From: Tannerellaceae bacterium | Lineage (GTDB): Bacteria; Bacteroidota; Bacteroidia; Bacteroidales; Tannerellaceae | Assembly: GCA_021201865.1 (NCBI GenBank) | Contig: JAJQEE010000112.1 | Span: 481-64,480, forward strand | Direction of reading: 5' to 3' | DNA: 64,000 nucleotides | Part shown: one piece after another, positions 8,581 through 59,937 of the stretch | Numbering within the stretch: position 1 is the stretch's first letter | Layout of the letters: each line of letters opens with the position of its first letter | Notes under the pieces: model-generated | Seen by the model: only the letters and a program-made list of their open reading frames with translations | Databases searched by the model: none | Told to the model about the DNA's origin: nothing | Made by a program: the position numbers and the translations under genes

Positions 8581-8633
8581 AATTATTTACAGAAAAATAT
8601 AAAAGTAAAATATATTTTCCTGTAGGGAAAAAA

Positions 8634-8801
8634 GAAATAGCCCAGGGCTGAGCGAAGCGATTCCCTGGGTTGGAGCCATGAGATAGCCGAACCTTGAAAA
8701 GGTTCCACAAATAGATAATTTATCCTATGCAACCCATTTCAGGGTTGAGGAGTATGGATATTCTACCCGGGGTGTCGCTACGCTCTACCCCGGGCTATTT
8801 C
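8634..8801. repeat. Degenerate palindromic intergenic repeat (family D, copy 1)
   Basis: The left end gaaatagcccagggctgagcgaagcgattccctgggttgg matches the reverse complement of the right end, gaaatagcccggggtagagcgtagcgacaccccgggtagaa. Internal mini-hairpins are gaaccttgaaaaggttc and caacccatttcagggttg. It shares the cccagggctgagcgaagcga module with 58048-58309. Confidence 0.7.
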
Positions 8802-8921
8802 TTTATCCCCTTTGGGAATCTCCTACCTTTTGTTTTTATCTTATTTATTTTTTTGATTCTTATTCATTATTTTGTTCCGGACCATCTCTTTGAAATACTT
8901 CTCTAAAGAAATAAATATTAC

Positions 8922-10000: not shown

Positions 10001-10015
10001 AAACGAATAATTTTT

Positions 10016-10214
10016 AAGTCCTGAAGGGACGGCATAGGTTAGCCTGGGACGCAAGTCCCAGGTACAGGGATATATAAATTGAGTGCTGAAAGTACGGTAC
10101 AATTTCAACAAACCGAATGTTTATAAAATAGGGGTGTACTTACAGCACACCCTCGGGGGTCTTTATACCTGGGACTTGCGTCCCAGGCTAATTTATACCG
10201 TCCCTTCAGGACTT
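10016..10214. repeat. 199-bp nested palindromic intergenic repeat (family C, copy 1), MITE/REP-like
   Basis: Arms are aagtcctgaagggacggcataggttagcctgggacgcaagtcccaggta and the reverse complement of tacctgggacttgcgtcccaggctaatttataccgtcccttcaggactt (3 mismatches). There is an inner stem gtgctgaaagtac / gtacttacagcac. A second copy lies at 22300-22510. Confidence 0.85.
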
Positions 10215-10403
10215 TAGGAATCAAAGATCTGCCTTAATCGTAATTCTTATTTCAAATCTCATCTCTCACCTTTCACCCCACTCAATTCATATCTGACAAC
10301 GTAATCATTTAATAATGTTTGGTAAATAAACTGAAATTTTATGGCTGGCTAAATAAAACCATCTACATTGCGTCACGTAGAAACGTAGGATAATTACGAA
10401 CGT

Positions 10404-19203: not shown

Positions 19204-20463
19204 ATGAAAAAACTATTCTTTACATGGATGATAGCCGGAGCAGCTGTTTTATTTTCCGGTTGCAGTGATTCGGTGATTATCCAAACGGTTACCCATACAG
19301 TAAATAAACCTGTTTATCTGTCTGCAGAAGAATTCCGTAACTCGGTAAGAGTGACAGAGGAACCCAAAGAGATCAGGCAACAGGGGAAACTCTGTTTTTA
19401 CAAAGATTACCTGTATATCTCCGAACCGGAAGTGGGGATCCATATTATAGATAACCGGGATCCGTCCCATCCGGAACCGGTAGGGTTTATTGAATTATTG
19501 GGAAACGTGGATCTGGCCATAAAGAATGATAAACTATATGCCGACTCCTATATTGACCTGGTCTGGTTTGACATTACCTATCCGGCTAAACCGGAGCTGG
19601 CCGGCCGTCTGGAAAATGTATTTTTAGCCGCTTTCCCGGAAACAGGAAATTGGTTTGACTATGATGTGGATATCGATGAAGTATATGCAGGAAAGATAGA
19701 CCGGATTATCATCGGTTGGGAAACTGAAGAGGTAACCTATCAGGTGGAATATAGAAAATCGGATGGAGATCTCGTGATGGATGCAGGTGCGGGAGGTGCT
19801 AATCCGGGTAGTGGTATAAATGGGTCGATGTCCCGTTTCGGACTGTATCAGGATTATATGTATGTCATTCTGAATAATCAGATCGGTATCTTTCATATAG
19901 GGGGAGAAAAGCCAGTCAAAGTAGGTTCGAATGAATATGTAGGCCGGGAAATGGAAACGATTTTTCCCTATAAAGACTGTCTGTTTATCGGAACTCCCGG
20001 TGGATTGATTATCTATTCCGCGGCTAATCCGGAACTACTGGAATACCAGTCTTCCATCGGGCATGTCTATGGATGTGACCCGGTAGTGGTTGAAAATGAC
20101 CTGGCCTATGTGACCGTACGTTCCGGGAACCTCTGTGGGCAGAATGTGGATGAACTGATCGTTTTTGATGTAAGTAATGTCAAATATCCTAAACGGCTGG
20201 TGACTTACACGATGAAAAATCCCAAAGGGCTGGGAATTGATAAGGGCATCCTTTTCCTATGTGATGACGGACTGAAAATCTTTAAAGCAGATGATCCCCA
20301 GACATTAGTGAGTAATTTAATCGTTCACTATGCCGGGATGGATGGCTATGATGTGATACCTTATCAGGATGTACTGATCATGATTGCAGATGATGGGTTG
20401 TATCAATATGACTATTCCGATCGGGATAATATCCATCTGCTAAGTAAACTATCTACCAGGTAA
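19204..20463 (+). CDS. LVIVD-repeat (beta-propeller) lipoprotein
   Basis: 419 aa. Lipoprotein signal ..AAVLFSGCSD. Repeated LVIVD-type units (VGIHIIDNRDPSHPEPV, DLVWFDITYPAKPEL, ELIVFDVSNVKYPKRL, GLKIFKADDPQTL). Confidence 0.7.
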   Translation: MKKLFFTWMIAGAAVLFSGCSDSVIIQTVTHTVNKPVYLSAEEFRNSVRVTEEPKEIRQQGKLCFYKDYLYISEPEVGIHIIDNRDPSHPEPVGFIELLGNVDLAIKNDKLYADSYIDLVWFDITYPAKPELAGRLENVFLAAFPETGNWFDYDVDIDEVYAGKIDRIIIGWETEEVTYQVEYRKSDGDLVMDAGAGGANPGSGINGSMSRFGLYQDYMYVILNNQIGIFHIGGEKPVKVGSNEYVGREMETIFPYKDCLFIGTPGGLIIYSAANPELLEYQSSIGHVYGCDPVVVENDLAYVTVRSGNLCGQNVDELIVFDVSNVKYPKRLVTYTMKNPKGLGIDKGILFLCDDGLKIFKADDPQTLVSNLIVHYAGMDGYDVIPYQDVLIMIADDGLYQYDYSDRDNIHLLSKLSTR

Positions 20464-20519: not shown

Positions 20520-20555
20520 CCGGCTTGCCTTATCTGAAAGGTGAGCCGGATTTTT
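20520..20555 (+). terminator. Possible terminator after the LVIVD gene
   Basis: Stem ccggct / agccgg with an 18-nt loop, followed by attttt. The stem is weak. Confidence 0.35.
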
Positions 20556-20564
20556 CTCCCTATA

Positions 20565-21089
20565 AATTTATTTTTAGGTATTCATCTATTCATATTTTTC
20601 GCAAACGGCTGTATTACAATGAATAAACTATGCACCCCTTCACGTTTCAGGTATTCATATGTATGCACCCCTGCCGGTCAGGTATTCATTCGGACAGAAT
20701 AAACAGACAGGCTCCGTAGGATAAGTATTTGTTTACTAATTACCCATCATTCATTACCCGCCTATATCTTTTTGCCAGTCCGCATACAAACTATTACTAC
20801 CCTCTACAGGGTAGCGCTGGTAAGATAGTATCTATTCATCAAAAAGTAGGCACCTACGAACGCCAGGGTGTAGAGGGTAGTAATAGTTTGTAGGTACCGT
20901 CTTTCCCTTTCCCGCTTGGTCTTTATCAAAAGATCAATTGATTATCCATTATTTTCCCTGCGGAATGAATACTTTATCCCAGGGTATTCATAAATATGAA
21001 TACCTGAAACGTGAAGGGGTGCATAGTTTATTCATTGTAATACAGCCGTTTGCGAAAAATATGAATAGATGAATACCTGAAAATAAATT
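20565..21089. repeat. 525-bp nested-palindrome non-coding element (family A/B, copy A)
   Basis: 20565-20660 and 20994-21089 are reverse complements at 95/96 positions. An inner perfect 24-bp stem (20785-20808 / 20869-20892) closes a 60-nt loop. GGTATTCA / TGAATACC occurs many times. There is no ORF >=60 aa. It is homologous to 59369-59881 in the opposite orientation, and the homology extends a little beyond the arms (~20554-21112). Confidence 0.9.
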
Positions 21090-21161
21090 GCAGGAGGAGG
21101 AAAAAGAAAAATTAATAGGCGGATATCCGGAATCCTTTACCCTGGTAGAAGACCGGGTACA

Positions 21162-21935: not shown

Positions 21936-22299
21936 GACTATCCTGTATTATAGAAGGGCAAGATACCAATTTCCGGGGAAAATGAAAAGGAGAAATTCAT
22001 TTTTATTCATGTCCGGATATGCGTTTTTTTGATGATTTGTTCCGGATTAACCTTTTCTCTATCCATTATCCGTATAAGAGTTTTCCTGATGAACCTGTGA
22101 ACTGTTTCCTGTTATTAACAACCAGATGTTCATAACAGAAAACAGTTCTTCTTTCTTCCGTGTAAACCTGAGACTTAGTCTGTTTATAAACCTGTTCATA
22201 ATCCGGTTAAAAACACTTATCGTTCATTGAAAAAGTTCCAGATTGTAAGCCCATAGGGCTTGCATGTGAAGGGTGATTGGCAAAGGGTGGTCTTTGTCT

Positions 22300-22510
22300 C
22301 TTAAGTCCTGAAAGGACGTCATATAATAGCCTGGGACGCAAGTCTCAGGTCAGGTATCAGCAGTCAATGGAGTGCTGAAAGTACGACACTGCATATACCA
22401 ACCTATTGTTTTCATCAGATGGGGTGTACATACAGCACACCCCGGGTGGGGATTTCCCTACCTGGGACTTGCGTCCCAGGCTAATATATGCCGTCCCTGC
22501 GGGACTTAAG
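22300..22510. repeat. 211-bp nested palindromic intergenic repeat (family C, copy 2)
   Basis: Arms are cttaagtcctgaaaggacgtcatataatagcctgggacgcaagtctcaggt and the reverse complement of acctgggacttgcgtcccaggctaatatatgccgtccctgcgggacttaag. The inner stem gtgctgaaagtac / gtacatacagcac is conserved with copy 1 (10016-10214). Confidence 0.85.
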
Positions 22511-22609
22511 GGATCAACGCTGGCAAATCCGGAGCATGAGAGATTGAAAAAAGGCATCTCTTATATCTGCTTTCCGCTTTCAGAGAAGGGATCTTCTTCG
22601 ACTAAAGTC

Positions 22610-48737: not shown

Positions 48738-49310
48738 ATGAAGAACATTGCTATTTTTGCTTCCGGCTCCGGTACAAACGCCGAAAACATTATCCGGTAT
48801 TTTTCTGACAGTGAAACCATTAAAGTTGCTGTGGTGCTTTCCAATAATCGTCATGTAAAAGTGCATGAGCGGGTGAATAAGTTAGGGGTTCCTTCTTTTG
48901 TATTTACCCGGGAAGAGTTTGTTGAAGGTACTCCTGTTATTAATAAACTGGCGGAATACCAGGTGGATTTTATCATTTTAGCCGGATTTATGAATAAAAT
49001 AGCAGATCCGTTACTGAAAGCATTTCCGAATAAAATTATCAATATTCACCCGGCTCTTCTCCCGAAGCATGGCGGGAAAGGAATGTTTGGTATGCATGTC
49101 CATGAAGCAGTCGTGGCAGCCGGAGAAAAAGAGTCCGGGATCACCATCCATTATATTAATGAAAATTATGATGAAGGGGCTCCGGTCTTTCAGGCTATCT
49201 GTCCCGTACTTCCGGAAGACACCCCGGAAGATGTCGCTGCCAAAGTGCACGCCCTGGAGTACGCCCACTATCCCAGAGTGATAGAAGAGGTACTGAATAA
49301 TGTTCAATAA
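48738..49310 (+). CDS. purN: Phosphoribosylglycinamide formyltransferase
   Basis: 190 aa. IAIFASGSGTNAENI.., ..LAGFM.., ..INIHPALLPKHGG... Confidence 0.9.
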   Translation: MKNIAIFASGSGTNAENIIRYFSDSETIKVAVVLSNNRHVKVHERVNKLGVPSFVFTREEFVEGTPVINKLAEYQVDFIILAGFMNKIADPLLKAFPNKIINIHPALLPKHGGKGMFGMHVHEAVVAAGEKESGITIHYINENYDEGAPVFQAICPVLPEDTPEDVAAKVHALEYAHYPRVIEEVLNNVQ

Positions 49311-49407
49311 TGTTGACTTTCCAAAAGTATAATCGTTGCGATATTACTCTTTAAAACTCATTTTAATTGAATGAGAGATCATTTCTCTTCTTCTTTCATA
49401 CAAAAAC

Positions 49408-49450
49408 GGTGTCAGTAAAGTTATTTTTTATTTACTGGCACCGTTTAATT
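49408..49450 (+). terminator. Hairpin terminator between the convergent purN and sulfatase genes
   Basis: Stem ggtgtcagtaaa / tttactggcacc (11 of 12 bp paired) with an 11-nt loop, followed by gtttaattt. Confidence 0.5.
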
Positions 49451-49604
49451 TACAGTCTCTTCTGTTCTTAAAATAATTACATATAGTCAGATCTTCCAAA
49501 AAGACATGTATTGTTCTGGTTTAGCCCAAAACAGATCAGGATTATTTGTTTGTCATTTGATAATTAATTCCGTGTGAATTGTCTTCTCTTGGTACGAATC
49601 TTGT

Positions 49605-51014
49605 TTATTTCGGTAACCGTGGAAACGGTTCATCAATGATACCGGCGGGCCGTTGATTTTTACCTTCATATCCCCAGTCACCCATATCTTCACGTACCTG
49701 TTCGATCAGCCTATGCATGTGACTAACAATTTCCGGATGTTGATCTATGACATTTTTGCTTTCCGAAATATCCAGATCCAGATCATATAATTCGGCAGGA
49801 TAACGTTCTGTATCCGGAAAATGGGGACCTTTTATTCTCTGTTCCAACGGAAGATGATATTTCCATTTTCCCCACCGGACCGCTTGTAATTGTTGTTTCT
49901 GGTAATAATAAAATATCTCTGTCGGGGAAGATCCTGTCTCTCCTTCCAGTATCCGGTTTACATTGTGTCCGTCAATGATCCGGTCATCAGGAACTTTAAG
50001 TCCGCAATAATAGGCAATAGTCGGTAGAAAGTCCATAGTCGTAATCAGTGCATCAGACGTTTGTCCGGCAGGAATAGTACCCGGCCATCGCATCAGGCAG
50101 GGAACCCGGAAGCCTCCTTCATAGGTCGTGCCTTTTTCTCCTCGCAAAGGATAGTTAGAGCCTCCGAATACCTCCTGTGCCCCATTATCCGAGGTGAAAA
50201 TAACTAATGTGTTCTCATCCAGTCCTTCTTCTTTCAGAACGGTGAAGATCTCTCCCATAGACCAATCCAGCTCCTCAGTAGCATCTCCGTATAAACCATT
50301 CTGTGATTTCCCTTTAAAAGCAGGGGAAGCCGCCAATGGATCATGTGTCATATTATGTGGCAGATAGATAAAGAAGGGACGCTCTTTATGGCTTTTGATA
50401 AACTCAATGGTTTTAGCTGTATACCGCAGGGTGAGGGAATCCTGATTGACCGGAGCTTCAATGACCTCCTCCTGTTCCATCAGAGGTAGGGGACAATATT
50501 CCCGGTCCATATCATTACTGTAAGGAATACCAAAATAATAATCAAAGCCCTGCCGGGTAGGCAGAAAGGCTAATTGATCTCCTAAATGCCATTTTCCTAT
50601 ACAGGCAGTTGCATAGCCTTTTTCTTTCAGCAGTTCCGCAATGGTGATCTCCGATGGGTTGAGTCCTTTATGGGATACCGGAAAAAGCACCTGCCTACCT
50701 GTTGAATGCAAGGGGGTAGGATCCGCATTCACATGCATGGAAATACGACGGGGATAGGATCCTGTTAGCAGGGCGGCACGGGAAGGGGTGCTGACACTGG
50801 AAGCCACGTAGAAATTAGAAAGTAAGATCCCTTCTTTCGCCATCCGGTCCAGATGCGGTGTCCGGTGGACCGTATTCCCGTAGCATCCCAGGTCCCCATA
50901 TCCAAAATCATCAATAAATACGATAATGATGTTGGGTTGTTCCGCGGCGGAAACAGTATTCATCATACTTAACCCTCCGGCTAAGGAGAGAAGATGCAGC
51001 ATTTTGTTTTTCAT
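49605..51014 (-). CDS. Sulfatase (S1 family, Ser-type formylglycine motif)
   Basis: 469 aa with a signal peptide. ..NIIIVFIDDFGYGDLG.. and the FGly motif SVSTPSRAALLTG (S-x-P-x-R), then ..GKWHLG... Confidence 0.9.
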   Translation of the reverse strand: MKNKMLHLLSLAGGLSMMNTVSAAEQPNIIIVFIDDFGYGDLGCYGNTVHRTPHLDRMAKEGILLSNFYVASSVSTPSRAALLTGSYPRRISMHVNADPTPLHSTGRQVLFPVSHKGLNPSEITIAELLKEKGYATACIGKWHLGDQLAFLPTRQGFDYYFGIPYSNDMDREYCPLPLMEQEEVIEAPVNQDSLTLRYTAKTIEFIKSHKERPFFIYLPHNMTHDPLAASPAFKGKSQNGLYGDATEELDWSMGEIFTVLKEEGLDENTLVIFTSDNGAQEVFGGSNYPLRGEKGTTYEGGFRVPCLMRWPGTIPAGQTSDALITTMDFLPTIAYYCGLKVPDDRIIDGHNVNRILEGETGSSPTEIFYYYQKQQLQAVRWGKWKYHLPLEQRIKGPHFPDTERYPAELYDLDLDISESKNVIDQHPEIVSHMHRLIEQVREDMGDWGYEGKNQRPAGIIDEPFPRLPK

Positions 51015-51058
51015 CTTTTTATTTGAATGTTAGAAATTGAAGTAAATCAATAATTAGT

Positions 51059-51104
51059 ACACAGATGACCCCGGACGATCCGCCTGATCTATGGTCATCT
51101 GTGT
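51059..51104 (-). terminator. 12-bp hairpin between the SusD stop and the sulfatase start (intra-PUL attenuator/terminator candidate)
   Basis: acacagatgacc pairs perfectly with ggtcatctgtgt across a 22-nt loop. Confidence 0.4.
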
Positions 51105-51124
51105 GGCATGATAATAAAAACGAA

Positions 51125-52702
51125 TTAATATCCCGGATTCTGTACCATCAACGCATTTCCGTTCAGCTCATCTTTAGGAATGGGCCAAAGTAACCGGTAA
51201 GCTTCGATATTCACCAGGTCTTCCGGATTGTAACAGAAAGTTGTTCCGGCAATATGTGCCTGGCGGGATTCTTTCAGTTTCCGGAGGGCATATTCTGTTC
51301 CCCACCGTTTCAGGTCATAAAATCGATGCCCTTCACCCACCAGTTCCAATGCCCGTTCGTTCCGGATCGCTTCCTGCAAATCCTCTTTACTGTTCAGTGG
51401 ACGGAGTCCGTCTTCGCCGGTCAGTGTATATAAAGTCTCTCCGGCACGGGAACGGATCTGGTTCAGGTAATTTAATGCGACCGGGGTCGCTCCGTTCAGT
51501 TCACACTCCACCTCAGCTTTCATCAGGACGACATCCGCATATCTGAAAATGAGTTGATTAAAAGGACAGTCGCCCACCTCAAATTCATGTCCTACAGTCG
51601 TGAAATCGGTGAATTTCATAATGTGGGGATACAATGGTTCGGTTGCGTTGGTGAAGATGATCACCTGTTCTTCTCCCTGACTATCCGTATATCTGTATTC
51701 TCCTTTGTAATCTGCCGATATCTCCTCCAAAAGAGGTTTCCGGGAATAAAACAATTTTGTTCTCGGGCTATCCTCTTCCGTCATTTGCATCAGGTAATCA
51801 TTTACCGGAAATGTTGCATTTGCTCCCTTAAAGGCATCATGCATAGGTAGGTAAAAACTTAACATGCCTAATCCCTGGCGGGGAAGAGTACCCCGTTCAA
51901 TATTAACTTCCCAGATCGATTCTTCATTGAATTTCTTCTCCGTATTCCACACATCCCCGATCTCAGGCATTAAAGAGTATCCTGTGATCTGGTCCAGTAC
52001 AGTGGCAGCGGATGGAAAATCTCCTTTCATGAGGTGCACCTTTGCTAACAGGGTTAAAACGGCTCCTTTTGTGATACGACCAGCCGGGGTGTTATTTTTA
52101 TCCGGTAAAGTCGCTGCCGCTTCCAAATCCATGATGACATGTTTCCAGACCTCCTCCGCCGGACTGCGGGCAATATCAGTTTCCTTCATATGGGTTGGTT
52201 CCATGCGTAGCGGCACATCTCCCCAGCGCATCACTAAATGATAATACATCAGGGAACGGAAGAATTTCGCTTCTTTAATATATTGCTCCTTTTTATCAGC
52301 CGGAATATCCGGGCTGGTGTTCTCCGTCAAAGCGTGGATATAAGAATTGGTGGTATAAATAACAGAATAGGCATGTTCCCACGCAATCACCAAAGGGGTT
52401 ATTTCGGAATGCAGGGTATATTTCGGAAAAGCGACCGCTTCAGCAGAAGCGACTGGTTTATAGGTTAACAGATCGGAACAGGGCTCACTACGTACAATAA
52501 AATTCTCTCTCATGCCTGCTGTGGCCTGCGAATTAGTAGCCAAAGCATAAATGCCCATTAGTCCACCGAATGCTTCCGCATCTGTTTGATAGAACGTCTC
52601 CTGCATTTGCTGGCCTCTGGGATCTTCATCCAGAAAATCACTACAGGAAGCGAACCACCATATACAGGCTGAAAATAAACTTATTTTTATCAGAGTTTTC
52701 AT
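51125..52702 (-). CDS. SusD/RagB-family outer-membrane lipoprotein
   Basis: The likely start is MKTLIKISLFSACIWWFASCSDFLDE at 52702 (lipobox). It is SusD-like throughout and lies 13 nt downstream of the SusC stop. Confidence 0.9.
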   Translation of the reverse strand: MKTLIKISLFSACIWWFASCSDFLDEDPRGQQMQETFYQTDAEAFGGLMGIYALATNSQATAGMRENFIVRSEPCSDLLTYKPVASAEAVAFPKYTLHSEITPLVIAWEHAYSVIYTTNSYIHALTENTSPDIPADKKEQYIKEAKFFRSLMYYHLVMRWGDVPLRMEPTHMKETDIARSPAEEVWKHVIMDLEAAATLPDKNNTPAGRITKGAVLTLLAKVHLMKGDFPSAATVLDQITGYSLMPEIGDVWNTEKKFNEESIWEVNIERGTLPRQGLGMLSFYLPMHDAFKGANATFPVNDYLMQMTEEDSPRTKLFYSRKPLLEEISADYKGEYRYTDSQGEEQVIIFTNATEPLYPHIMKFTDFTTVGHEFEVGDCPFNQLIFRYADVVLMKAEVECELNGATPVALNYLNQIRSRAGETLYTLTGEDGLRPLNSKEDLQEAIRNERALELVGEGHRFYDLKRWGTEYALRKLKESRQAHIAGTTFCYNPEDLVNIEAYRLLWPIPKDELNGNALMVQNPGY

Positions 52703-52715
52703 ATGCTTTTTCTTT

Positions 52716-55700
52716 TTAAAATCCAATATTTACACCAAAACTAACTGTGCGGGGAACCGGATAAGTAGCGGCATCAATCCCCTGTGCCATGACAGATGAT
52801 CCCATGGAACTGACATCAGGAGACCAGCCGGGGTATTTCGTGAATGTATATACGTTATCCACACTTGCTCTAAGTCGCAGATTATTGACTTTGATCCGGT
52901 TCAGGATCTGTTTCGGAAATGTATAAGAGAGAGAAATATTGTTGATCCGGAAAAATGATCCGTCAAATACATGATAAGAAACATCCGTATAGGCACGGAC
53001 ATCATATCCGGAACGGGGTTCGGTCCGGCTGGGATGATTCACCTGCCACCGGTTATCATACCAGTCCTGAGCCGCATTATATCCTAACACCATCCGCTGG
53101 TTCATCAGATGTTGCATACTAAAGATGTCATTGCCTACCACCCATTGGCAAAGGATATCCAGTTGGAAACCTTTATAGGTGAAACTGTTGGTCATACCAC
53201 CGGTGAAGTCCGGATTCGCATCCCCTATAATCGTTTTATCGGCATCGGTGATCTTGCCATCTCCATTCATATCTACAATTTTCAACTCGCCGGGAGCATA
53301 TTGAACCTGTCCCATTTCCCGTGCGGTCGCAGACTCTGTTTCGTCGTAGATCACGCCGTCTGATTTGTATCCATAGATCAGGCCCAACGGAGATCCGACT
53401 TTCAGGATAGAAGGCTGGGATTGAATATCTCCCGCGGTGATACCTCCGCTTGGATTGATAATTTCAGTTCTCCCATCTCCCAGGCTGATAATCTTATTCC
53501 GGTTGATAGAATTATTAATATTCAGGTTCCACTTAAAATTCTTATTATCTATGATATATGCGTCTATGGTAATCTCTAAACCTTTATTGTCAATCGTGCC
53601 GATATTCTCCAGGCGGGAGACAAAACCGGATGAAGCCGGAAGTGCCCGTTGATATAACAGGTCATTGGTCCGCTTATAATAGTAATCAATGGTTGCATTC
53701 AATCGATTGTCGAAAAAACCCATATCCAGTCCTATGTCAACCTGCCGGGTTTTTTCCCATTTCAGATCCGGATCTGCGGAACGGTTAGGGTAATAGCCTG
53801 TGTACAGATCTTTTCCGATATATACCTGCCGGGCTTCTAAAGTAGAAAGTGTCTGGTATAACGGGATTCCCTGTTCTCCGGAAGTACCGTAACTGGTCCT
53901 TAATTTCAGATTGGATAACTTCCGGAAATCTTTCATAAAATCTTCCTCCATCACACGCCAGGCAAATGCACCGGAGGGAAAGAACGCATTTTTATTATTC
54001 GCTCCGAAACGGGAGGAGCCATCTATACGTCCGGTGAAAGTAACGGAATACTTATTCATCAGAGAATAATTAATACGGGTCAGATACGAACGCATCTGCC
54101 ATGCACTATACCCCGAAGCCGCACTGAAGTTGGTAGCTTCTTTCAGATTATTAAAGGTTGAGTTGTCATTGGCAAATCCTGTTCCTGTAGTCTGGAATGT
54201 TTCCGTTACATCTTTCTGCCACTCTGCGCCTACCATGGCATTCAGGCTATGGATCTTATCAAAGGTATTAATATAAGTAAGTGTATTCGTGGAATTCCAG
54301 TACAATCGGTTGTAGGAACCTAAAATAGCTCTTCCTTTATCCGCATTTCCTTCGGCAATATAGGACGGAGTATAATGCTTAGCCGTTGCATTCGAGGCAT
54401 CCGTGGCAAATGTGGTTTTAAACTTTAATTCTTTCAGGAAAGAAATTTCTGCATATATATTTGAAATAAAGCGGTTTCGGAGATCATTATTCGTAATCTC
54501 TTTTAAAGAAGCATACGGGTTTGCTCTTCTGCTCTCTACATCTACATATGGTGTGTAACTCCCGTCTTCCGCGAAAATGGGAACCACAGGAGATGCCAGG
54601 GAAATAAGTCCGATCATCGTGTTTGAATCTAACTTATTCCCCAGGCCGTTCTCTCCGTCATTATGTCCGGCCTGGTTACTATCCGTACGGGTGGCAGACA
54701 TATTCACTCCCACTGTCAACAGACGGGAGAGCTGGTTCTCTACATTGGCACGCATGGTGTAGCGTTTGAAATCCGTATTCATAATAATCCCATCCTGAGA
54801 GGTATATCCTCCGGACAGCATATACCGGAGCTTTTCCGTCCCACCACTGAAAGAGATCTCATAACTCTGAACCGGAGCTGTCCGGAAAATTTCATCCTGC
54901 CAGTTTGTTCTGGCCGGCAGATGGTTCAGATCATATTTTCCCGTTCCATTATTCTTATAGTCCATGGATTCGTTCCACAGTTCCGCCCATTGTTCCGGAC
55001 TGGTCAGTTTCAACCGGTTCTCAACACTTTGAAAACCTACGGACATATTGAAATTGGCCTGGAAGGCTCCCTCTTTTCCCCGTTTGGTCGTGATCATGAT
55101 CACCCCGTTAGCCCCTCTTGAACCATAGATAGCAGTAGCAGATGCATCTTTGAGTATCTCCATGGATTCAATATCGGACGGATTAATAATAGTCAGCGGA
55201 GAGATGGATTCCCCCTGTAGACCGCCTGCTGCTCCTCCACCATCCAAAGGCACCCCGTCCACTACATAGAGGGGTTCATTCGATCCTAAAATGGAGCTGG
55301 TACCACGGACCCGTACGACTGCGCCGGCACCTGGTTGACCGGAAACAGTCGTAATCTGTACACCTGCTGATTTGCCTTTCAACGCCATATCGGGAGATTG
55401 TGCCAATCCTAAGGTGATCGCATCCGCTTTGAGGGAGGTCAATGATCCGGTCAGGTCACTCTTTTTGATCGTTCCATATCCGACTACTACTACTTCATCC
55501 AGGTCCATCGTGTTTTCTGAAAGCCCTACCTGGATAATGGATTGGTTCCCGACCGGGATCTCTTTATCACTATACCCGATATAAGAGATGATCAGCACCG
55601 CATTTGCCGGTACCTCCAGGGAGAAGTTCCCGTCCATATCCGTAATGGTTCCTTGTGTGGTTCCCTTCACCACCACATTGGCTCCAATGACGGGGTCTCC

Positions 55701-56051
55701 ATAGTTATCTATAACTACGCCGGATATTTTTCTGGTTTGTTGAGGGACTCCGTTATGGGGAGTCAATATGATATGTTTATCAACGATCCGGTAGGAAATG
55801 TTCTGCTCTTTGGCAATCTGATCCAATATTTCAGGTACCAGCTTTTGGTGAGCCTGTAGGTTCACCTTCCGGTTACTGTCGATCTCTTCACTTTTGTAGA
55901 AAAACATAAATTCGGATTGTTCTTCTATCTGGGAAACGATATCATATAAGCTACCATTCTTCACTGATACCGAGACACGATACTGCTGTGCATAGGTGCT
56001 GGCTGTTACCTGAATGATACTGAATAAAATAAAGACGGATATAAATTTCAT
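52716..56051 (-). CDS. SusC-like TonB-dependent transporter with an N-terminal anti-sigma-signalling (STN) domain
   Basis: The likely start is MKFISVFILFSIIQVTASTYAQ at 56051. STN-like ..SLYDIVSQIEEQSEFMFFYKS.., ISGVVID..GANVVVKGTTQGTITDMDGNF, LDEVVVVGYG, and a barrel ending ..VSFGVNIGF. Confidence 0.9.
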   Translation of the reverse strand: MKFISVFILFSIIQVTASTYAQQYRVSVSVKNGSLYDIVSQIEEQSEFMFFYKSEEIDSNRKVNLQAHQKLVPEILDQIAKEQNISYRIVDKHIILTPHNGVPQQTRKISGVVIDNYGDPVIGANVVVKGTTQGTITDMDGNFSLEVPANAVLIISYIGYSDKEIPVGNQSIIQVGLSENTMDLDEVVVVGYGTIKKSDLTGSLTSLKADAITLGLAQSPDMALKGKSAGVQITTVSGQPGAGAVVRVRGTSSILGSNEPLYVVDGVPLDGGGAAGGLQGESISPLTIINPSDIESMEILKDASATAIYGSRGANGVIMITTKRGKEGAFQANFNMSVGFQSVENRLKLTSPEQWAELWNESMDYKNNGTGKYDLNHLPARTNWQDEIFRTAPVQSYEISFSGGTEKLRYMLSGGYTSQDGIIMNTDFKRYTMRANVENQLSRLLTVGVNMSATRTDSNQAGHNDGENGLGNKLDSNTMIGLISLASPVVPIFAEDGSYTPYVDVESRRANPYASLKEITNNDLRNRFISNIYAEISFLKELKFKTTFATDASNATAKHYTPSYIAEGNADKGRAILGSYNRLYWNSTNTLTYINTFDKIHSLNAMVGAEWQKDVTETFQTTGTGFANDNSTFNNLKEATNFSAASGYSAWQMRSYLTRINYSLMNKYSVTFTGRIDGSSRFGANNKNAFFPSGAFAWRVMEEDFMKDFRKLSNLKLRTSYGTSGEQGIPLYQTLSTLEARQVYIGKDLYTGYYPNRSADPDLKWEKTRQVDIGLDMGFFDNRLNATIDYYYKRTNDLLYQRALPASSGFVSRLENIGTIDNKGLEITIDAYIIDNKNFKWNLNINNSINRNKIISLGDGRTEIINPSGGITAGDIQSQPSILKVGSPLGLIYGYKSDGVIYDETESATAREMGQVQYAPGELKIVDMNGDGKITDADKTIIGDANPDFTGGMTNSFTYKGFQLDILCQWVVGNDIFSMQHLMNQRMVLGYNAAQDWYDNRWQVNHPSRTEPRSGYDVRAYTDVSYHVFDGSFFRINNISLSYTFPKQILNRIKVNNLRLRASVDNVYTFTKYPGWSPDVSSMGSSVMAQGIDAATYPVPRTVSFGVNIGF

Positions 56052-56211
56052 AATATTCCTGATCTTTTGTAGGGGTGTACGTGCACACCTGTGATTTTTT
56101 TCCATATATTTGAGTGTTGTTCATTAATGAATGCCTCTCTTTCTCTCCATCCGGATTAGGCCCTGGAAGGAGATCATAAAATGAGAGGATTGATTTAATT
56201 AAAATGACATG

Positions 56212-56240
56212 CCGGGGATCGCAACTCCCCGGTTTTTTTT
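56212..56240 (+). terminator. Canonical hairpin plus T8 in the FecR-SusC spacer, oriented antisense to the operon
   Basis: Stem ccgggga / tccccgg with loop tcgcaac, followed by tttttttt on the plus strand. The flanking genes are on the minus strand. Confidence 0.5.
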
Positions 56241-56287
56241 GATCCGGACTTTTAACTCATAGGCAATCAGATTTAAGGGTGTAACAG

Positions 56288-57327
56288 TTAGCGCGGATAG
56301 ATGAATATCTCATTTCCTGTCCGCTTAAAATCAAATCTTTCATCATAATTAATGATCCGTAGAAGTTCCTGGATATCCTGATCCAGTGAAAAGGTTCCCG
56401 TATATAAAATACGTTTCAGATTCTCATCTTTCAGATGGATAGTAACGTCATAGTAATTTTCCAGTTTGCGAATGATCGTGGCTAAAGGCTCATCCCGGAA
56501 TTTATATTCTCCTTTCGTCCATGCACAGGCCAATGCCGGATCAACCGTTCGTAGGGAAACAGCACCGCTCTGATGGTCCGAAATCGCTTCCTGATTAGGA
56601 TGGAGAAGCATATGGCTGACCCTTTCGTCCTGTTCGTTGAATGTTTCCAGGCTGATACTTCCACTGGCTAATGTCGTTATACTATAAGGCTCCTCCTGAT
56701 AAGATCTGACGTTAAAAGTCGTTCCGAGTACATGAATGGTTTGTTTTCCGGATCTCACCTGGAAGGGCTTAAGAGAGTCACCTGCAATCTGGAAGTAGGC
56801 TTCTCCATCCAGATAAACCAATCGCTCTGACTGATTGAAATGAACCGGGTAAGAAAACCGGGAGGCTGCATTCAGAACAACTAAGCTACCGTCAGGCAAG
56901 GTGATTTTATTCGCTTTGCCACCTTTTTCTACGAGGATCTCCGTATAGGCCAGAGGGCTTTTCTCTTTTTCCGGTGAAAGGGAAGTGGATTGCATCCCCA
57001 CATACCATCCGCTCACCATTGCGACACTCACGATCGCTACATATTGAATGGTCTGTCGCCAGATCTTCCGGGAAGAAAAAGAGGGTTTTTTTGAGTCAAT
57101 TCCGGCTGTATGCGTGTAAACATCCGTTCCCAGCTCTTCGCGGGGTCAGGCAATAGGATCTCTCTGTTTTTGGGAGAGGAATCGTGGATGCGTTTGATCT
57201 CAAAAAAGAGGGTTTTGTTTTCTTCTGAACTCCGGATCCAGTCCATGAGTTCATGGAGCTCTTTATCGCAAATATTCCCTTGCAGATAACGTATGATATA
57301 CTCTTCTATGGGAGTAACTTCTTTCAT
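56288..57327 (-). pseudogene. FecR-family anti-sigma factor. The frame is broken at T7 run 57086-57092 (A7 on the coding strand).
   Basis: ORF 57037-57327 is the cytoplasmic N-terminus. ORF 56288-57031 carries the TM segment and FecR domain (..ITLPDGSLVVLNAASRFSY.., ..VLGTTFNV.., ..ACAWTKGEYKFRDEPLATIIRKLENYY..). Adding one A gives ..ELTQKKPSFSSRKIWRQTIQYVAIVSVAMVSGW... Confidence 0.85.
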
Positions 57328-57370
57328 TCTTAATTCCTGTTTTTATATAAATACGATTGAGTAGCCTTTT

Positions 57371-57939
57371 TTACTTATCCGGATGCTGGTTTCTTTTCAG
57401 GAGAGCACCCCGGAGCTGTTTCAGAGCTTTATATAATTGAGCTTCTACTGTTCTTTTGGAAATGTCAAGAAGGGAAGCGATCTCCGTTGTTTTTCGCTCT
57501 TCCAGATAGGACATGGTAAATATTTCCCGGCATCTTTCCGGAAGTTTTTCTATTTCATGATAAATAGCGGATAAGCGTCTGTCTTCGGCAAAAAGAAAGG
57601 AAGGATCATCATTAAACCGGATCTCTTCTATTTTCAGCTGGGTGAGGATCGTTTCCCGGTAATTCCCGGTGATCTCTTTATGTTTCAGATAATCTAAACA
57701 GGTGTGCTGAACGGAACGGTATAAATAATGGGAAATTCCCTCTTTAATATAATGAAATATTTTTTCTGCCAGATCTTAAAGAATACATCCTGTACCAGAT
57801 CTTCGGCAGTCACGGGATCCACATACTTTGCCGCATAGTAGATCAGTTGCGGAGCATAGGTGTTATAAAGAGCCTTAAACTCTTCCAGTTCAGTAGGATT
57901 CTCTCGTGGATTATTCATAGGGCCTGTAATCAGAAACAA
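57371..57939 (-). pseudogene. ECF sigma factor. The frame is broken at T6 run 57760-57765 (A6 on the coding strand).
   Basis: ORF 57694-57939 carries region 2 (TAEDLVQDVFFKIWQKK). Another frame continues IFHYIKEGISHYLYRSVQHTCLDYLK...LPERCREIFTMSYLEERKTTEIASLLDISKRTVEAQLYKALKQLR.. to the stop at 57371-57373. Confidence 0.85.
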
Positions 57940-58047
57940 GGTTCACTAAGCTATTTTTTTATATAACGACTGAACAGGAAATAATACTTACCGGAAAGAA
58001 AATTATTTCAGAGTTTTTTCAGAAGGGTGACTTAATATATAAGTAAA

Positions 58048-58309
58048 GTAAATGTTTTATATGCTGACTATTCTACCCTGCAAGGGTAACAGCATCAGCC
58101 CAGGGCTGAGCGAAGCGAGCCCCTGGGTTGTAAAGTAGTATGATTCAACCCTGTAGTGGGTTGCATATTTATTATTGACTTATTGACAGAGAGTGAAACC
58201 CTTACAGGGTTATTGTTTTGGTAACCTTACCCAGGGATTCGCTTCGCTCAGCCCTGGGCTATTGCTGGTACCCTTGCAGGGTAGAATAGTCAGCATATAA
58301 AACATTTAC
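58048..58309. repeat. 262-bp nested palindromic intergenic repeat (family D, copy 2)
   Basis: The arm gtaaatgttttatatgctgactattctaccctgcaagggtaacagcatcagcccagggctgagcgaagcga pairs with the reverse complement of tcgcttcgctcagccctgggctattgctggtacccttgcagggtagaatagtcagcatataaaacatttac, with few mismatches. The interior is pseudo-symmetric, with mini-hairpins aaccctgtagtgggtt and aacccttacagggtt. Confidence 0.85.
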
Positions 58310-58321
58310 AAGAAAATTTAA

Positions 58322-58459
58322 CAGCCCTGGGGCATCGCCCGGGTTGTTGGTAGTAACAAGTGTTATTTTTTACTATACTGCACCTACGGTGCGCGATCTT
58401 CTGATCCTCCACTGAACCCCAGCGTGGCTGGGGTCTGGCATATCGTAGGCCTCCGGCCT
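58322..58459. repeat. String of short GC-rich palindromic units (REP-like mini-hairpins)
   Basis: agccctggggcatcgcccgggtt (a fragment of the family D module), gcacctacggtgc (58380-58392), acccca..tggggt (58416-58434) and aggcctccggcct (58447-58459). Confidence 0.4.
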
Positions 58460-58508
58460 GTAAAAGAAAGGTATACAGAGTTGCTCCGGAATAGAGGAAT
58501 TTATGTTT

Positions 58509-59279
58509 TCACCGGAACATCCAGCTAATGAAATCCGGTTCAGCAAAAGCATTGTTCCAGCTATCGTGGTTTACTCCCGGATATTCTTTGTAGTAAACTT
58601 CTTTTCCTGAATTTTTCAGTGTTTTATAGGCATCCCTTGACCAGATCACATCTACCGTATCATCTGCTGACCCATGATACATACGAAAAATGGTTTTCCC
58701 TTTGAAGTTTTTCAGTCTTTCGAGGTTGGCACCTCCACAAATGGGAGTGGCTGTTTTAAAAAGGTTTGGATAACGGCATACCAGATCAAACGAGCCGATC
58801 GCTCCCATGGAAAGTCCGGCAATATGGATTTGATCCGTGTCGACAATCCCTTTTTGAATATAACTATCTAATAGTTCCCTGACAGCATTCAGGGAAGGAG
58901 TAATAGCGACCGAATAGGGGAAATGTCGTTTTTGGCCTTCCGGATTTGGACGGGTGTAGGTAGACCAGTATAATGCTGAAGGACACTGAGGGGCTATGAT
59001 GATAGCCGGATAGGAAGATTGATTTTCATACGAGGCGAACATCTCTCCCCCGTGGGTCAACTGTCTTTCATTATCTTCCCCTCTTTCCCCTGCACCATGT
59101 AGGAACAGAATAACGGGATATGATTTATCCGGAGAATAATTCAGAGGATAAAGTATCCGGTAGTTCAGTTTATATCCGTCTTTAGCTGTAAACTGTTTTT
59201 TCAGGAAACTAACTTTGTCACCTGCAAAAGCTTGCGTTACAATAGAAAGGAAAAAGAATAAAGCGATTATTTTTTTCAT
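58509..59279 (-). CDS. Secreted alpha/beta-hydrolase (phospholipase/carboxylesterase-type esterase)
   Basis: 256 aa. Signal peptide MKKIIALFFFLSIVTQAFA, ..VILFLHGAGERG.., nucleophile elbow GLSMG, and ..HGSADDTV.., ..NHDSW... Confidence 0.75.
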   Translation of the reverse strand: MKKIIALFFFLSIVTQAFAGDKVSFLKKQFTAKDGYKLNYRILYPLNYSPDKSYPVILFLHGAGERGEDNERQLTHGGEMFASYENQSSYPAIIIAPQCPSALYWSTYTRPNPEGQKRHFPYSVAITPSLNAVRELLDSYIQKGIVDTDQIHIAGLSMGAIGSFDLVCRYPNLFKTATPICGGANLERLKNFKGKTIFRMYHGSADDTVDVIWSRDAYKTLKNSGKEVYYKEYPGVNHDSWNNAFAEPDFISWMFR

Positions 59280-59368
59280 GGTTTATTAATTATATAAATT
59301 CTTTATTCAAAGATAGGGATCTATTTTAGAATGGGGATAAAAAATCTCCTGTTTTCTTCCTGGAACTT

Positions 59369-59881
59369 TTTTTAGGTATTCACCTATTCACCTTTTGGGT
59401 AAGTGGCTGATCATGAATCAGTAACGGTGCATACCTGGCTGTTTTAGGTATTCACCTCGGTGAATACCCCAGGGCAGAAGTATTCACCTTGCAGGGAGAG
59501 TATAGGATAATAAAGGGACATTTTGGTGAATAGTAAAGGCTCAAGTCTCAGGGGATGCCCACAAACTATTGCTACCCTCTACACCCTGGCGTCCGTAGCC
59601 GCCTACTTTATTGGTGAATAGATACTATCTTACCGGCGCTACCCTGTAGAGGGTAGCAATAGTTTGTGGGTGGGGCGGAAAAAAGAGGTATGCGGGTAGT
59701 GAATGATGATAGGGGATTCAATGAATACTTTCCCTATGGGAAAACCTTTCTTTGTCCTGAAAAGTGAATATCTTACTGGTAGGTATTCACCCAGGTGAAT
59801 ACCTAAAACAGCCAGGTATGCACCGCTACTGATTCATGATCAGTCACTTATCCAAAAGGTGAATAGGTGAATACCTAAAAA
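59369..59881. repeat. 513-bp nested-palindrome non-coding element (family A/B, copy B), inverted relative to copy A
   Basis: 59369-59456 and 59794-59881 are reverse complements at 85/88 positions. An inner perfect 26-bp stem (59558-59583 / 59645-59670) closes a loop that is the reverse complement of copy A's loop at 54/60 positions. There are many GGTATTCACC / GGTGAATACC motifs and no ORF >=60 aa. Homology to copy A extends to ~59345-59899. Confidence 0.9.
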
Positions 59882-59937
59882 TAAATTTATAGGGGGGAGA
59901 TTAACGAGAAAGAGGATATCCTAAAAGTCTATCTCTG

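Follow-up and report, generated by a model that had tools for sequence, protein, structure and literature searches.

We asked why two diverged copies of one element each carry a pair of arms almost perfectly complementary to each other. The two copies, here called A and B, lie in a 64,000-nt stretch of DNA from a Tannerellaceae bacterium (assembly GCA_021201865.1, contig JAJQEE010000112.1, positions 481 to 64,480 of the forward strand), which we refer to as the window. An initial annotation of B had offered two answers: either the hairpin formed by the arms is under selection, or one arm is copied from the other. Comparison with related loci favors the second. A and B are probably gene-less, non-autonomous, iteron-armed origin-like units of ~550 bp, the arms of which have been matched by arm-to-arm copying. 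Judged from the sequences of the family, the near-perfect complementarity of B's arms most likely results from such copying and not from a conserved structural requirement.

Elements A and B

Element B occupies positions ~59351-59901 on the plus strand (in canonical orientation: upstream arm, core, downstream arm), and element A occupies ~20552-21103 with its canonical orientation on the minus strand. Both are intergenic, and neither contains an open reading frame of at least 40 aa. Alignment of A with the reverse complement of B gave a single architecture with the terminus CCCTATAAATTTATTTTTAGGTATTCA at the left end of A and the right end of B, which confirmed the initial description of B as an inverted, diverged copy of A. 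The core (~120 nt) was ~93% conserved between the two copies and the arm interiors aligned poorly; the central ~45 nt that had been reported as unalignable correspond to an unconserved spacer within the arm. The motif GGTATTCA occurred 21 times in the window versus 2.7 times expected, with 12 of the 21 occurrences inside A and B, so the resemblance between the copies is not due to chance.

An inverted-repeat search identified the arms of B as 59369-59468 and 59782-59881 (100 nt, 96% complementary). The gap-free alignment of these tracts had 96/100 complementary positions, and the four mismatches comprised two G.T pairs on the plus strand, one G.T pair on the minus strand and one C.C. The G.T counts were those reported initially, and they favor neither strand. 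For A, the search returned 20565-20691 and 20963-21089 (127 nt, 91% complementary); in the alignment, the outer 96 nt (20565-20660 and 20994-21089) were complementary at 95/96 positions, as claimed before, and identity fell further in. Over arm positions 1-100, identity was 91-92% within A or B and 61-62% between A and B.

The limits first given for B (59369-59881) turned out to be too narrow. Among 24 aligned arm ends, conservation persisted for ~23-25 nt beyond the doublet AGGTATTCA and then gave way to noise, and the homology of a related locus (L022) to B ended at window position 59901. Together, these two observations place the ends of B at ~59351 and 59901 (~551 bp). Short-read contigs bearing the window's flanking genes terminated within the arms, as expected for a repeat.

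Arm Identity across the Family

Scans with the terminus pattern yielded four loci from species-representative genomes and 14 more from JGI metagenomes (18 in total). The first four all belonged to one Tannerellaceae metagenome-assembled genome (MAG), MO.1_2, where they were located on four contigs. The window derives from a different Tannerellaceae MAG at NCBI, in which LUG51_08905 is identical to the protein encoded at 19204-20463. When the same locus recovered from sister-sample assemblies was merged, ~13 distinct elements remained besides A and B: six complete and gene-less members (L007, L009, L013, L019, L020 and L022), five truncated or decayed members (L006, L008, L010, L011 and L016), one longer member cut by a contig end (L005) and one gene-bearing member (L017). 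Two loci, L012 and L018, had a short match only. The copies were dispersed, with two in the window's contig and four in MO.1_2. A scan of viral contigs with the terminus pattern produced one 24-nt match with no similarity beyond it, and a blastn search of a plasmid collection with B produced no match.

We compared the upstream and downstream arms over positions 1-100 in the nine complete members, that is, A, B, L017 and the six complete gene-less loci. Identity was 100% in L007, 92% in A, 91% in B, 80% in both L013 and L020, 71% in L009, 69% in L019, 67% in L017 and 57% in L022, against a between-element background of 61 +/- 8%. Complementarity was high in three members (A, B and L007), intermediate in two and at background in four, including the sole gene-bearing one. 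A long perfect hairpin is therefore not a property of the family. The within-element excess (overall permutation p = 5e-5) was carried by three to five members. When only the spacer was considered, the nine arm identities were 100, 100, 92, 78, 66, 64, 53, 51 and 47%. The distinction between upstream-type and downstream-type spacers was a weak tendency and was used for the comparison of B with L022 alone.

The identity was confined to patches in A and B. In B, it was 100% in the terminal doublet, 92% in the spacer, 44% in the outer 25 nt and 62% in the innermost part of the arm; the corresponding values for A were 100%, 100%, 60% and 62%. Beyond the patches, the arms of both copies stayed side-specific, with the same downstream-type tip and similar upstream inner segments. 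The spacers of A and B differed from each other by several indels, yet the 96-100-nt tract of either copy contained no unmatched indel, which favors a single copying step over paired mutations. In L007, arm identity (130 nt, 99%) extended to the extreme tip of the element.

The direction of copying may be read from L022. Its downstream arm was 86-91% identical to both arms of B (91% over 148 nt with the downstream arm of B), and its upstream arm was unrelated to them (55-57%). L022 therefore likely represents, as far as arm sequences can tell, the pre-conversion state of B's lineage; on the simplest reading, the downstream arm of B would have overwritten the upstream one.

The age of element A was estimated from a related genome, in which a protein encoded next to the element is 81% identical to its counterpart in the window. 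This genome has a copy of the element (L033) at the position of A, in the same orientation and downstream of the orthologous gene, which means that the insertion of A predates the species split. The L033 contig ends 41 nt past the start of AGGTATTCA, 66 nt into the element, and over the 63 alignable positions its arm was 87% identical to that of A (8/63 differ). The adjacent intergenic flank was 87.5% identical between the two genomes and the 3' end of the gene 83%. Arms drifting independently would be expected to have diverged by ~12%, whereas those of A differed at 1/96 positions, so A was homogenized after its insertion, and its perfect arms do not indicate a young copy. The concerted change of the arms proposed in the initial annotation is thus real and post-insertional. 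We also considered a faster turnover of A's arm than of its flank and dropped the idea, as a gapped alignment gave 87% for both. In L033, ~95 extra nt (5361-5454) separate the terminator hairpin of the orthologous gene from the element, which in the window directly abuts the hairpin. A second old insertion was indicated by L008 (from MO.1_2) and L020, which have 676 nt of flank plus arm in common at 82.5% identity.

Of the two explanations offered at the outset, copying fits these data best. A functional hairpin or cruciform of the arms (as RNA, or as DNA that is single-stranded in replication or transfer), maintained by purifying selection and compensatory changes, appears unlikely to us. It would account for arms that are 96-100% complementary in three members of an old, diverged family, for arms of A that have been alike since before a species split, and for the nearly equal tract limits of A and B. 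It fits less well with the lack of excess arm complementarity in four of the nine complete elements, among them L017, the one member whose genes are intact; arms that decay independently had been named initially as the observation that would speak against a selected hairpin, and they were found in this part of the family only. Stretches of 96-130 nt without bulges or unmatched indels, in copies that differ by indels, are also more easily obtained by copying, and L022 indicates that one arm was replaced wholesale. The mismatches of B do not point to either strand as the source of a structured RNA. Rfam returned no match on A or B at the gathering score, and at a permissive E-value it returned only look-alikes of microRNA precursors (E at least 0.03).

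Organization of the Arms and the Core

An arm consists of five to seven copies of the 10-bp site GGTATTCACC and its variants GGTATGCAT and GGTGCATACC, arranged in a set order. Read from the outside in the 24 ends, the order starts with a ~25-nt outer segment (TTCTCTCCCTgtAAaTTTTTTT) and the direct doublet AGGTATTCAYCTATTCAY, which was invariant in all 24 ends; in the nine complete members, conservation of the terminal doublet was 100% at either end. Inward of the doublet follow a hardly conserved ~30-nt spacer, a single inverted site (GGTGAATACC or GGTGCATACC), and two or three direct sites. Within an element, the arms mirror each other in site order, and this order was kept across the family while the spacers drifted freely. 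The elements of the family are thus bounded by mirror-image arm arrays, with the core between them.

In the upstream arm of B, the outer terminal segment (59351-59368, plus strand, consensus TTCTCTCCCTgtAAaTTTTTTT) differs from that at the opposite end and is not homogenized. It is followed, all on the plus strand, by the homogenized tract (59369-59468, delimited by inverted-repeat search and alignment) with the terminal doublet AGGTATTCACCTATTCACC (59374-59392), the variable spacer (~59393-59425), the inverted variant site GGTGCATACC (59426-59435) and the site pair GGTATTCACC/GGTGAATACC (59447-59468). The downstream arm is arranged as a mirror image on the minus strand: its homogenized tract (59782-59881) includes the variant site GGTATGCACC (59815-59824) and the terminal doublet (59858-59876), and its outer terminal segment (59882-59901) is of the CCCCTATAAATTTATTTTT type, common to the left end of A. 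The core of B (59558-59670, plus strand) is closed by an inverted repeat (59558-59597 and 59631-59670); the core of A lies at 20785-20892 on the minus strand.

The CTACCCTCTACA core measured 122-123 nt in every family member. Its layout is AAACTAT, a short linker and a CTACCCTCTACACCCTGG unit, then one or two central GCCTACCT-like sites, then a CTACCCTCTACACCCTAC unit and ATAGTTT. The core of B has two CTACCCT(C/G)TA(C/G)A units around a central GCCTAC/TGAATA site, and its single-strand fold had a z-score of -6.6. The two units are direct repeats in most members; in A, B and L017, the second unit is the exact complement of the first, giving a stem of 23-33 bp. In these three elements an imperfect inverted repeat of the core was made perfect in one step, like the arms.

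The outer 14-bp closing stem of the core was 82% paired across 13 members versus 35-49% with the partner columns slid. Seven of its pairs were altered on both sides, and its covariation score exceeded those of all 500 shuffles, which would fit a selected structure. Modest covariation was present in the core; the arms paired at background in four of nine members. Judged from the alignment, the covariation of the core could stem equally from a selected structure (an origin hairpin, a dimer binding site or the 5'-leader of an HU gene) or from homogenization.

Two members had additional sequence inside the element. In L005 (2680-3320, from MO.1_2), ~640 extra nt with an array of CCCTGCGGAA/TTCCGCAGGG motifs lie between the upstream arm and the core; CCCTGCGGAA was also found once beside A's upstream arm, and B has a degenerate version of it. 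In the decayed member L010 (1280-1460), another small hairpin repeat is inserted between the remaining terminus and the core.

A Gene-Bearing Relative and Its Initiator

One member of the family, L017 (1192-4188, 3.0 kb), has termini and a core like those of A and B and, in addition, two genes that lie between its core and the far arm. Both genes are read away from the core, which lies directly upstream of the first, encoding a 129-aa HU-HIG protein. The other encodes a 692-aa protein with BT4734-like_N, VapE-like and DUF3874 domains. BT4734-like_N is a family of archaeo-eukaryotic primases (AEP) (PMC11724360, PMC5862659). An AlphaFold model of the 692-aa protein, built on 30 homologues, had a mean predicted local distance difference test score (pLDDT) of 82. 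Its best match in the PDB was Rep1 of the Staphylococcus aureus pathogenicity island (SaPI) SaPI1 bound to DNA (7pds; E = 2e-17, target TM-score 0.63, ~440/450 target residues aligned), followed by the primase-helicases of NrS-1 and African swine fever virus; a sequence search alone also reached 7pds. The last 75 residues (the DUF3874 region) were modelled as helix-strand-strand-helix-helix-strand-strand, close to a winged helix. As modelled, the protein joins an AEP primase to a self-loading helicase that resembles SaPI Rep1 and ends in a winged-helix domain.

Because these genes lie within matching arms and a matching core, A and B look like orphan iteron-armed origin units. No such initiator gene was present in the window, and no gene remnant was detectable in A or B. 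The identical 692-aa protein was found in two of the three sequencing samples that hold the window's genes, a co-occurrence at the level of samples.

A search with the L017 initiator returned 672 homologues, the closest full-length one being ~42% identical. We examined nine gene contexts, and in six of these the cassette was bracketed by inverted repeats of lineage-specific site arrays, often with a terminal doublet and a direct-direct-inverted order. The site was GGTATTCACC in L017, CACTGCTATCAC in L026, GCTATCAT in L027, ATCCTTCA in L028, GTTGCAGATAC in L030 and CTGACAATA in L037. The five cassettes besides L017 thus have mirrored arrays of unrelated sites, GCTATCA among them, at a protein identity of 38-42%. 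The site changes along with the initiator, a pattern to be expected if a cassette encodes the reader of its own sites. Two of the six array-bracketed cassettes also had 23-nt tandem iterons upstream of the gene. The remaining three contexts had no flanking repeat, and in two of them (L029 and L036) a neighboring gene abuts or overlaps the 3' end of the cassette.

Many BT4734-family homologues were found only on contigs of 2.4-3.5 kb, approximately the size of a cassette, and for some of them the number of member sequences ran from hundreds to thousands; such contigs would fit assembly breaks at flanking repeats or a separate small replicon. In a Tannerellaceae MAG (L025, 355-5747), capsule export genes (Poly_export, Wzz/GNVR and CpsB) directly follow a BT4734-family gene, on a contig that begins just ahead of this gene. 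A phage or plasmid lifestyle, suggested by initiator matches labelled 'phage' or 'plasmid', was not adopted, as these were unverified gut contigs or chromosome-like replicons with housekeeping neighbors. To our knowledge, no biology has been assigned to BT4734/BF3469-family genes beyond 'AEP primase family'. Full-text literature searches on DUF3874, BT4734, BF3469, DUF4248 and VirE with inverted repeats returned no account of the architecture, the cis sites or any mobility.

These cassettes also bear on the idea that A and B are ordinary miniature inverted-repeat transposable elements (MITEs), with arms that serve as multi-site ends (Tn7/Mu type) for a transposase encoded elsewhere and with the L017 genes as cargo. 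The elements are short and non-coding and have terminal inverted arms; the copies are dispersed (in the window, in MO.1_2 and on at least eight contigs of one metagenome), many of them truncated or decayed, and short-read assemblies break inside the arms. We nevertheless regard this reading as doubtful. No transposase or integrase was encoded between or beside the ends at the terminus-pattern loci recovered from two very large collections, and no such domain occurred in L017 or beside the other copies examined, including the single-terminus loci L010, L011, L016 and L018. The borders of the 24 aligned ends, known to within ~3 nt, showed no direct repeat that would represent a target-site duplication. 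The copies are 60-90% alike, which does not indicate a recent burst. Finally, the five other initiator lineages have different mirrored sites, with site and protein changing jointly.

The flanks of B gave no clean empty site. The nearest relative (L031) lacks B upstream of the esterase gene, but its neighborhood is rearranged on both sides of that gene, and its homology to the window ends 36 nt before the element; A is present in this relative at the orthologous locus. The esterase is 86% identical between the two genomes, and the homology runs from 59315 to 58516 and resumes at 49301. B lies at one such synteny break. The ~9 kb at 49310-58509, with SusC/SusD-like and other genes, is present in the window and absent from L031. 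The gene upstream of the esterase gene also differs between the two.

Probable Arm-to-Arm Copying and Remaining Alternatives

On the favored reading, the 10-bp sites would be iterons bound by the primase-Rep initiator or its HU partner, and A and B would be orphan origin or cis-site units, acted on only in trans. Approximately 100 bp of one arm would have been copied onto the other at the DNA level, by intramolecular gene conversion or template switching. The copying would postdate insertion and would have occurred separately in A, B and L007.

Several points weigh against this account. The nearly equal tract limits of A and B would be less expected from random conversion than from a constraint or a mechanism that acts repeatably, and the covariation of the core's closing stem, albeit modest, is equally what a selected structure would yield. 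A, B and L007 might be the sole functional members and the rest dead copies, which would rescue selection on the hairpin. Either form may have come first, the gene-less copies by loss of genes or L017 by their gain. Neither integration machinery nor a target duplication was seen at the examined loci, and they gave no clean empty site. The homology with Rep1 concerns the protein and not the origin, the link between protein and sites being one that we infer. The arrays of L017 are 2.8 kb apart around its genes and do not form a compact origin. Lastly, the region between the arms is not AT-rich (GC content of 45% in the interior of B and 50% in its core, versus 43.5% in the window), unlike SaPI origins, which leaves the analogy with these origins incomplete.

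A recent copy-back (snap-back), in which A and B would be young and one end would have been built as an inverted copy of the other, is improbable. In L007, where the identity reaches the tip of the element, copy-back may have occurred. In A and B, however, the arms are side-specific both in their outer ~25 nt and in their innermost ~40 nt, and the old insertion of A, evident from the divergence of its arm and flanking protein in the related genome, excludes copy-back for A.

L008 and L020 have opposite core orientations relative to their common flank, as expected from a crossover between inverted arms. That the core is instead a phase-variable segment, flipped by a recombinase to switch a promoter, is very improbable: Bacteroidales are rich in invertible promoters, the core directly precedes the HU gene in L017 and is flipped between L008 and L020, but the arms are 100-130-nt arrays and not short recombinase sites, no recombinase gene was found beside the copies examined, in A, B, L005 and L009 the core always points the same way with respect to the side-specific outer segments, and the second flank of L008 and L020 is not common, hence there is no clean inversion.

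Arm-to-arm copying in orphan origin units can be extended, tentatively, to the cassettes as a whole. BT4734/BF3469 cassettes (~3 kb, with or without an HU-HIG gene) might be an as yet unrecognized class of mobile self-replicating elements with mirror iteron arrays that disperse in chromosomes without a transposase or integrase and shed gene-less, origin-only copies, with one arm repeatedly copied onto the other by the element's own replication or recombination intermediates; we hold this to be possible rather than probable.

Other Repeats and RNA Scans of the Window

The window contained no tRNA or tmRNA genes. A scan for sigma-70-type promoters found nothing above shuffled sequences; this model is not one for Bacteroidetes promoters. 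Two ~200-nt hairpin elements (10014-10217 and 22297-22513) have arms that matched Acido-Lenti-1 (RF01687) at 54-61 bits on both strands. Hairpins of this type form separate families of direct and inverted repeats, unrelated to A and B. A third family of hairpin repeats was represented at 58048-58309 and 8617-8818, with arms of ~54-81 nt that are 78-94% complementary and contain CCCAGGGCTGAGCGAAGCG. A 79% identical copy was found at an unrelated metagenome locus (L019, 2001-2200). Of the two window copies, that at 58048-58309 is near a synteny break, ~200 nt below the esterase gene.

Significance and Comparison with Known Systems

BT4734/BF3469-family genes are abundant in gut Bacteroidales, often with several per genome. 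The cassette genes are now tied to a defined DNA architecture of mirrored lineage-specific arrays and a core, and this architecture was found gene-less at many loci, so that a mobile element might conceivably spread with no recognizable recombinase. The family also provides a bacterial case in which arm copying and hairpin selection can be separated with family data, and a warning that a perfect long inverted repeat need not imply a functional hairpin. Iteron origins with Rep-type self-loading helicases, MITE-like derivatives and the concerted evolution of inverted repeats are each known separately. Their combination (mirror iteron arms, a primase-helicase/HU cassette, gene-less copies in Bacteroidales and sporadic arm copying) appears to be undescribed in the literature searched.

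The closest parallel is found in the origins of SaPIs and other phage-inducible chromosomal islands. In SaPIs, the initiator is a self-loading Rep helicase, the winged-helix C-terminal domain of which binds iterons on both sides of the origin, in opposite directions (PMC9371898). The C-terminal two-thirds of the L017 protein superpose on SaPI1 Rep1 over nearly its whole length, and SaPI5 also has a primase-Rep fusion. Short element-specific iterons on either side in opposite orientation are the layout of the arms described here (PMC9371898), and the site sequence here likewise differs between protein lineages. The differences are that our sites measure 10 bp versus 5-6 bp, that the center is not AT-rich, that the arrays of L017 flank genes, and that the primase is an AEP of the BT4734 type. 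Integrase, packaging and phage-interference genes are missing here, and gene-less copies scattered over the chromosome have not been described for SaPIs.

The alpha protein of satellite phage P4 is a primase-helicase with a C-terminal DNA-binding domain that recognizes the octamer TGTTCACC, repeated in two separate cis regions, ori and crr, both of which are needed for replication. It resembles the L017 protein in this domain order and in the repeated cis sites that the L017 protein would use. However, the primase of alpha is of the Toprim type, P4 is an 11.6-kb satellite with an integrase, and ori and crr are not terminal inverted arms, whereas the present family combines an AEP primase with terminal arms.

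Bacterial MITEs such as Correia, ERIC and RUP resemble A and B in being short, intergenic, multi-copy sequences that are non-coding, have terminal inverted repeats and share their ends with a larger, gene-bearing element. In the present family, however, each arm is an array of many sites 120-150 nt long, target duplications were not found, and the copies are old and have diverged; the genes of the larger relative are for a replication initiator and an HU protein instead of a transposase.

Concerted evolution of inverted repeats and template switching at quasi-palindromes are known from plastid inverted repeats, Y-chromosome palindromes, adenovirus terminal repeats and quasipalindrome mutagenesis in E. 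coli. The elements described here are similar in that the arms within a copy are alike while the copies diverge, that identity is tract-wise, and that an imperfect repeat is perfected in one step. They differ in that the process affects only some members of a dispersed bacterial family and acts on arms that are themselves arrays of putative binding sites.

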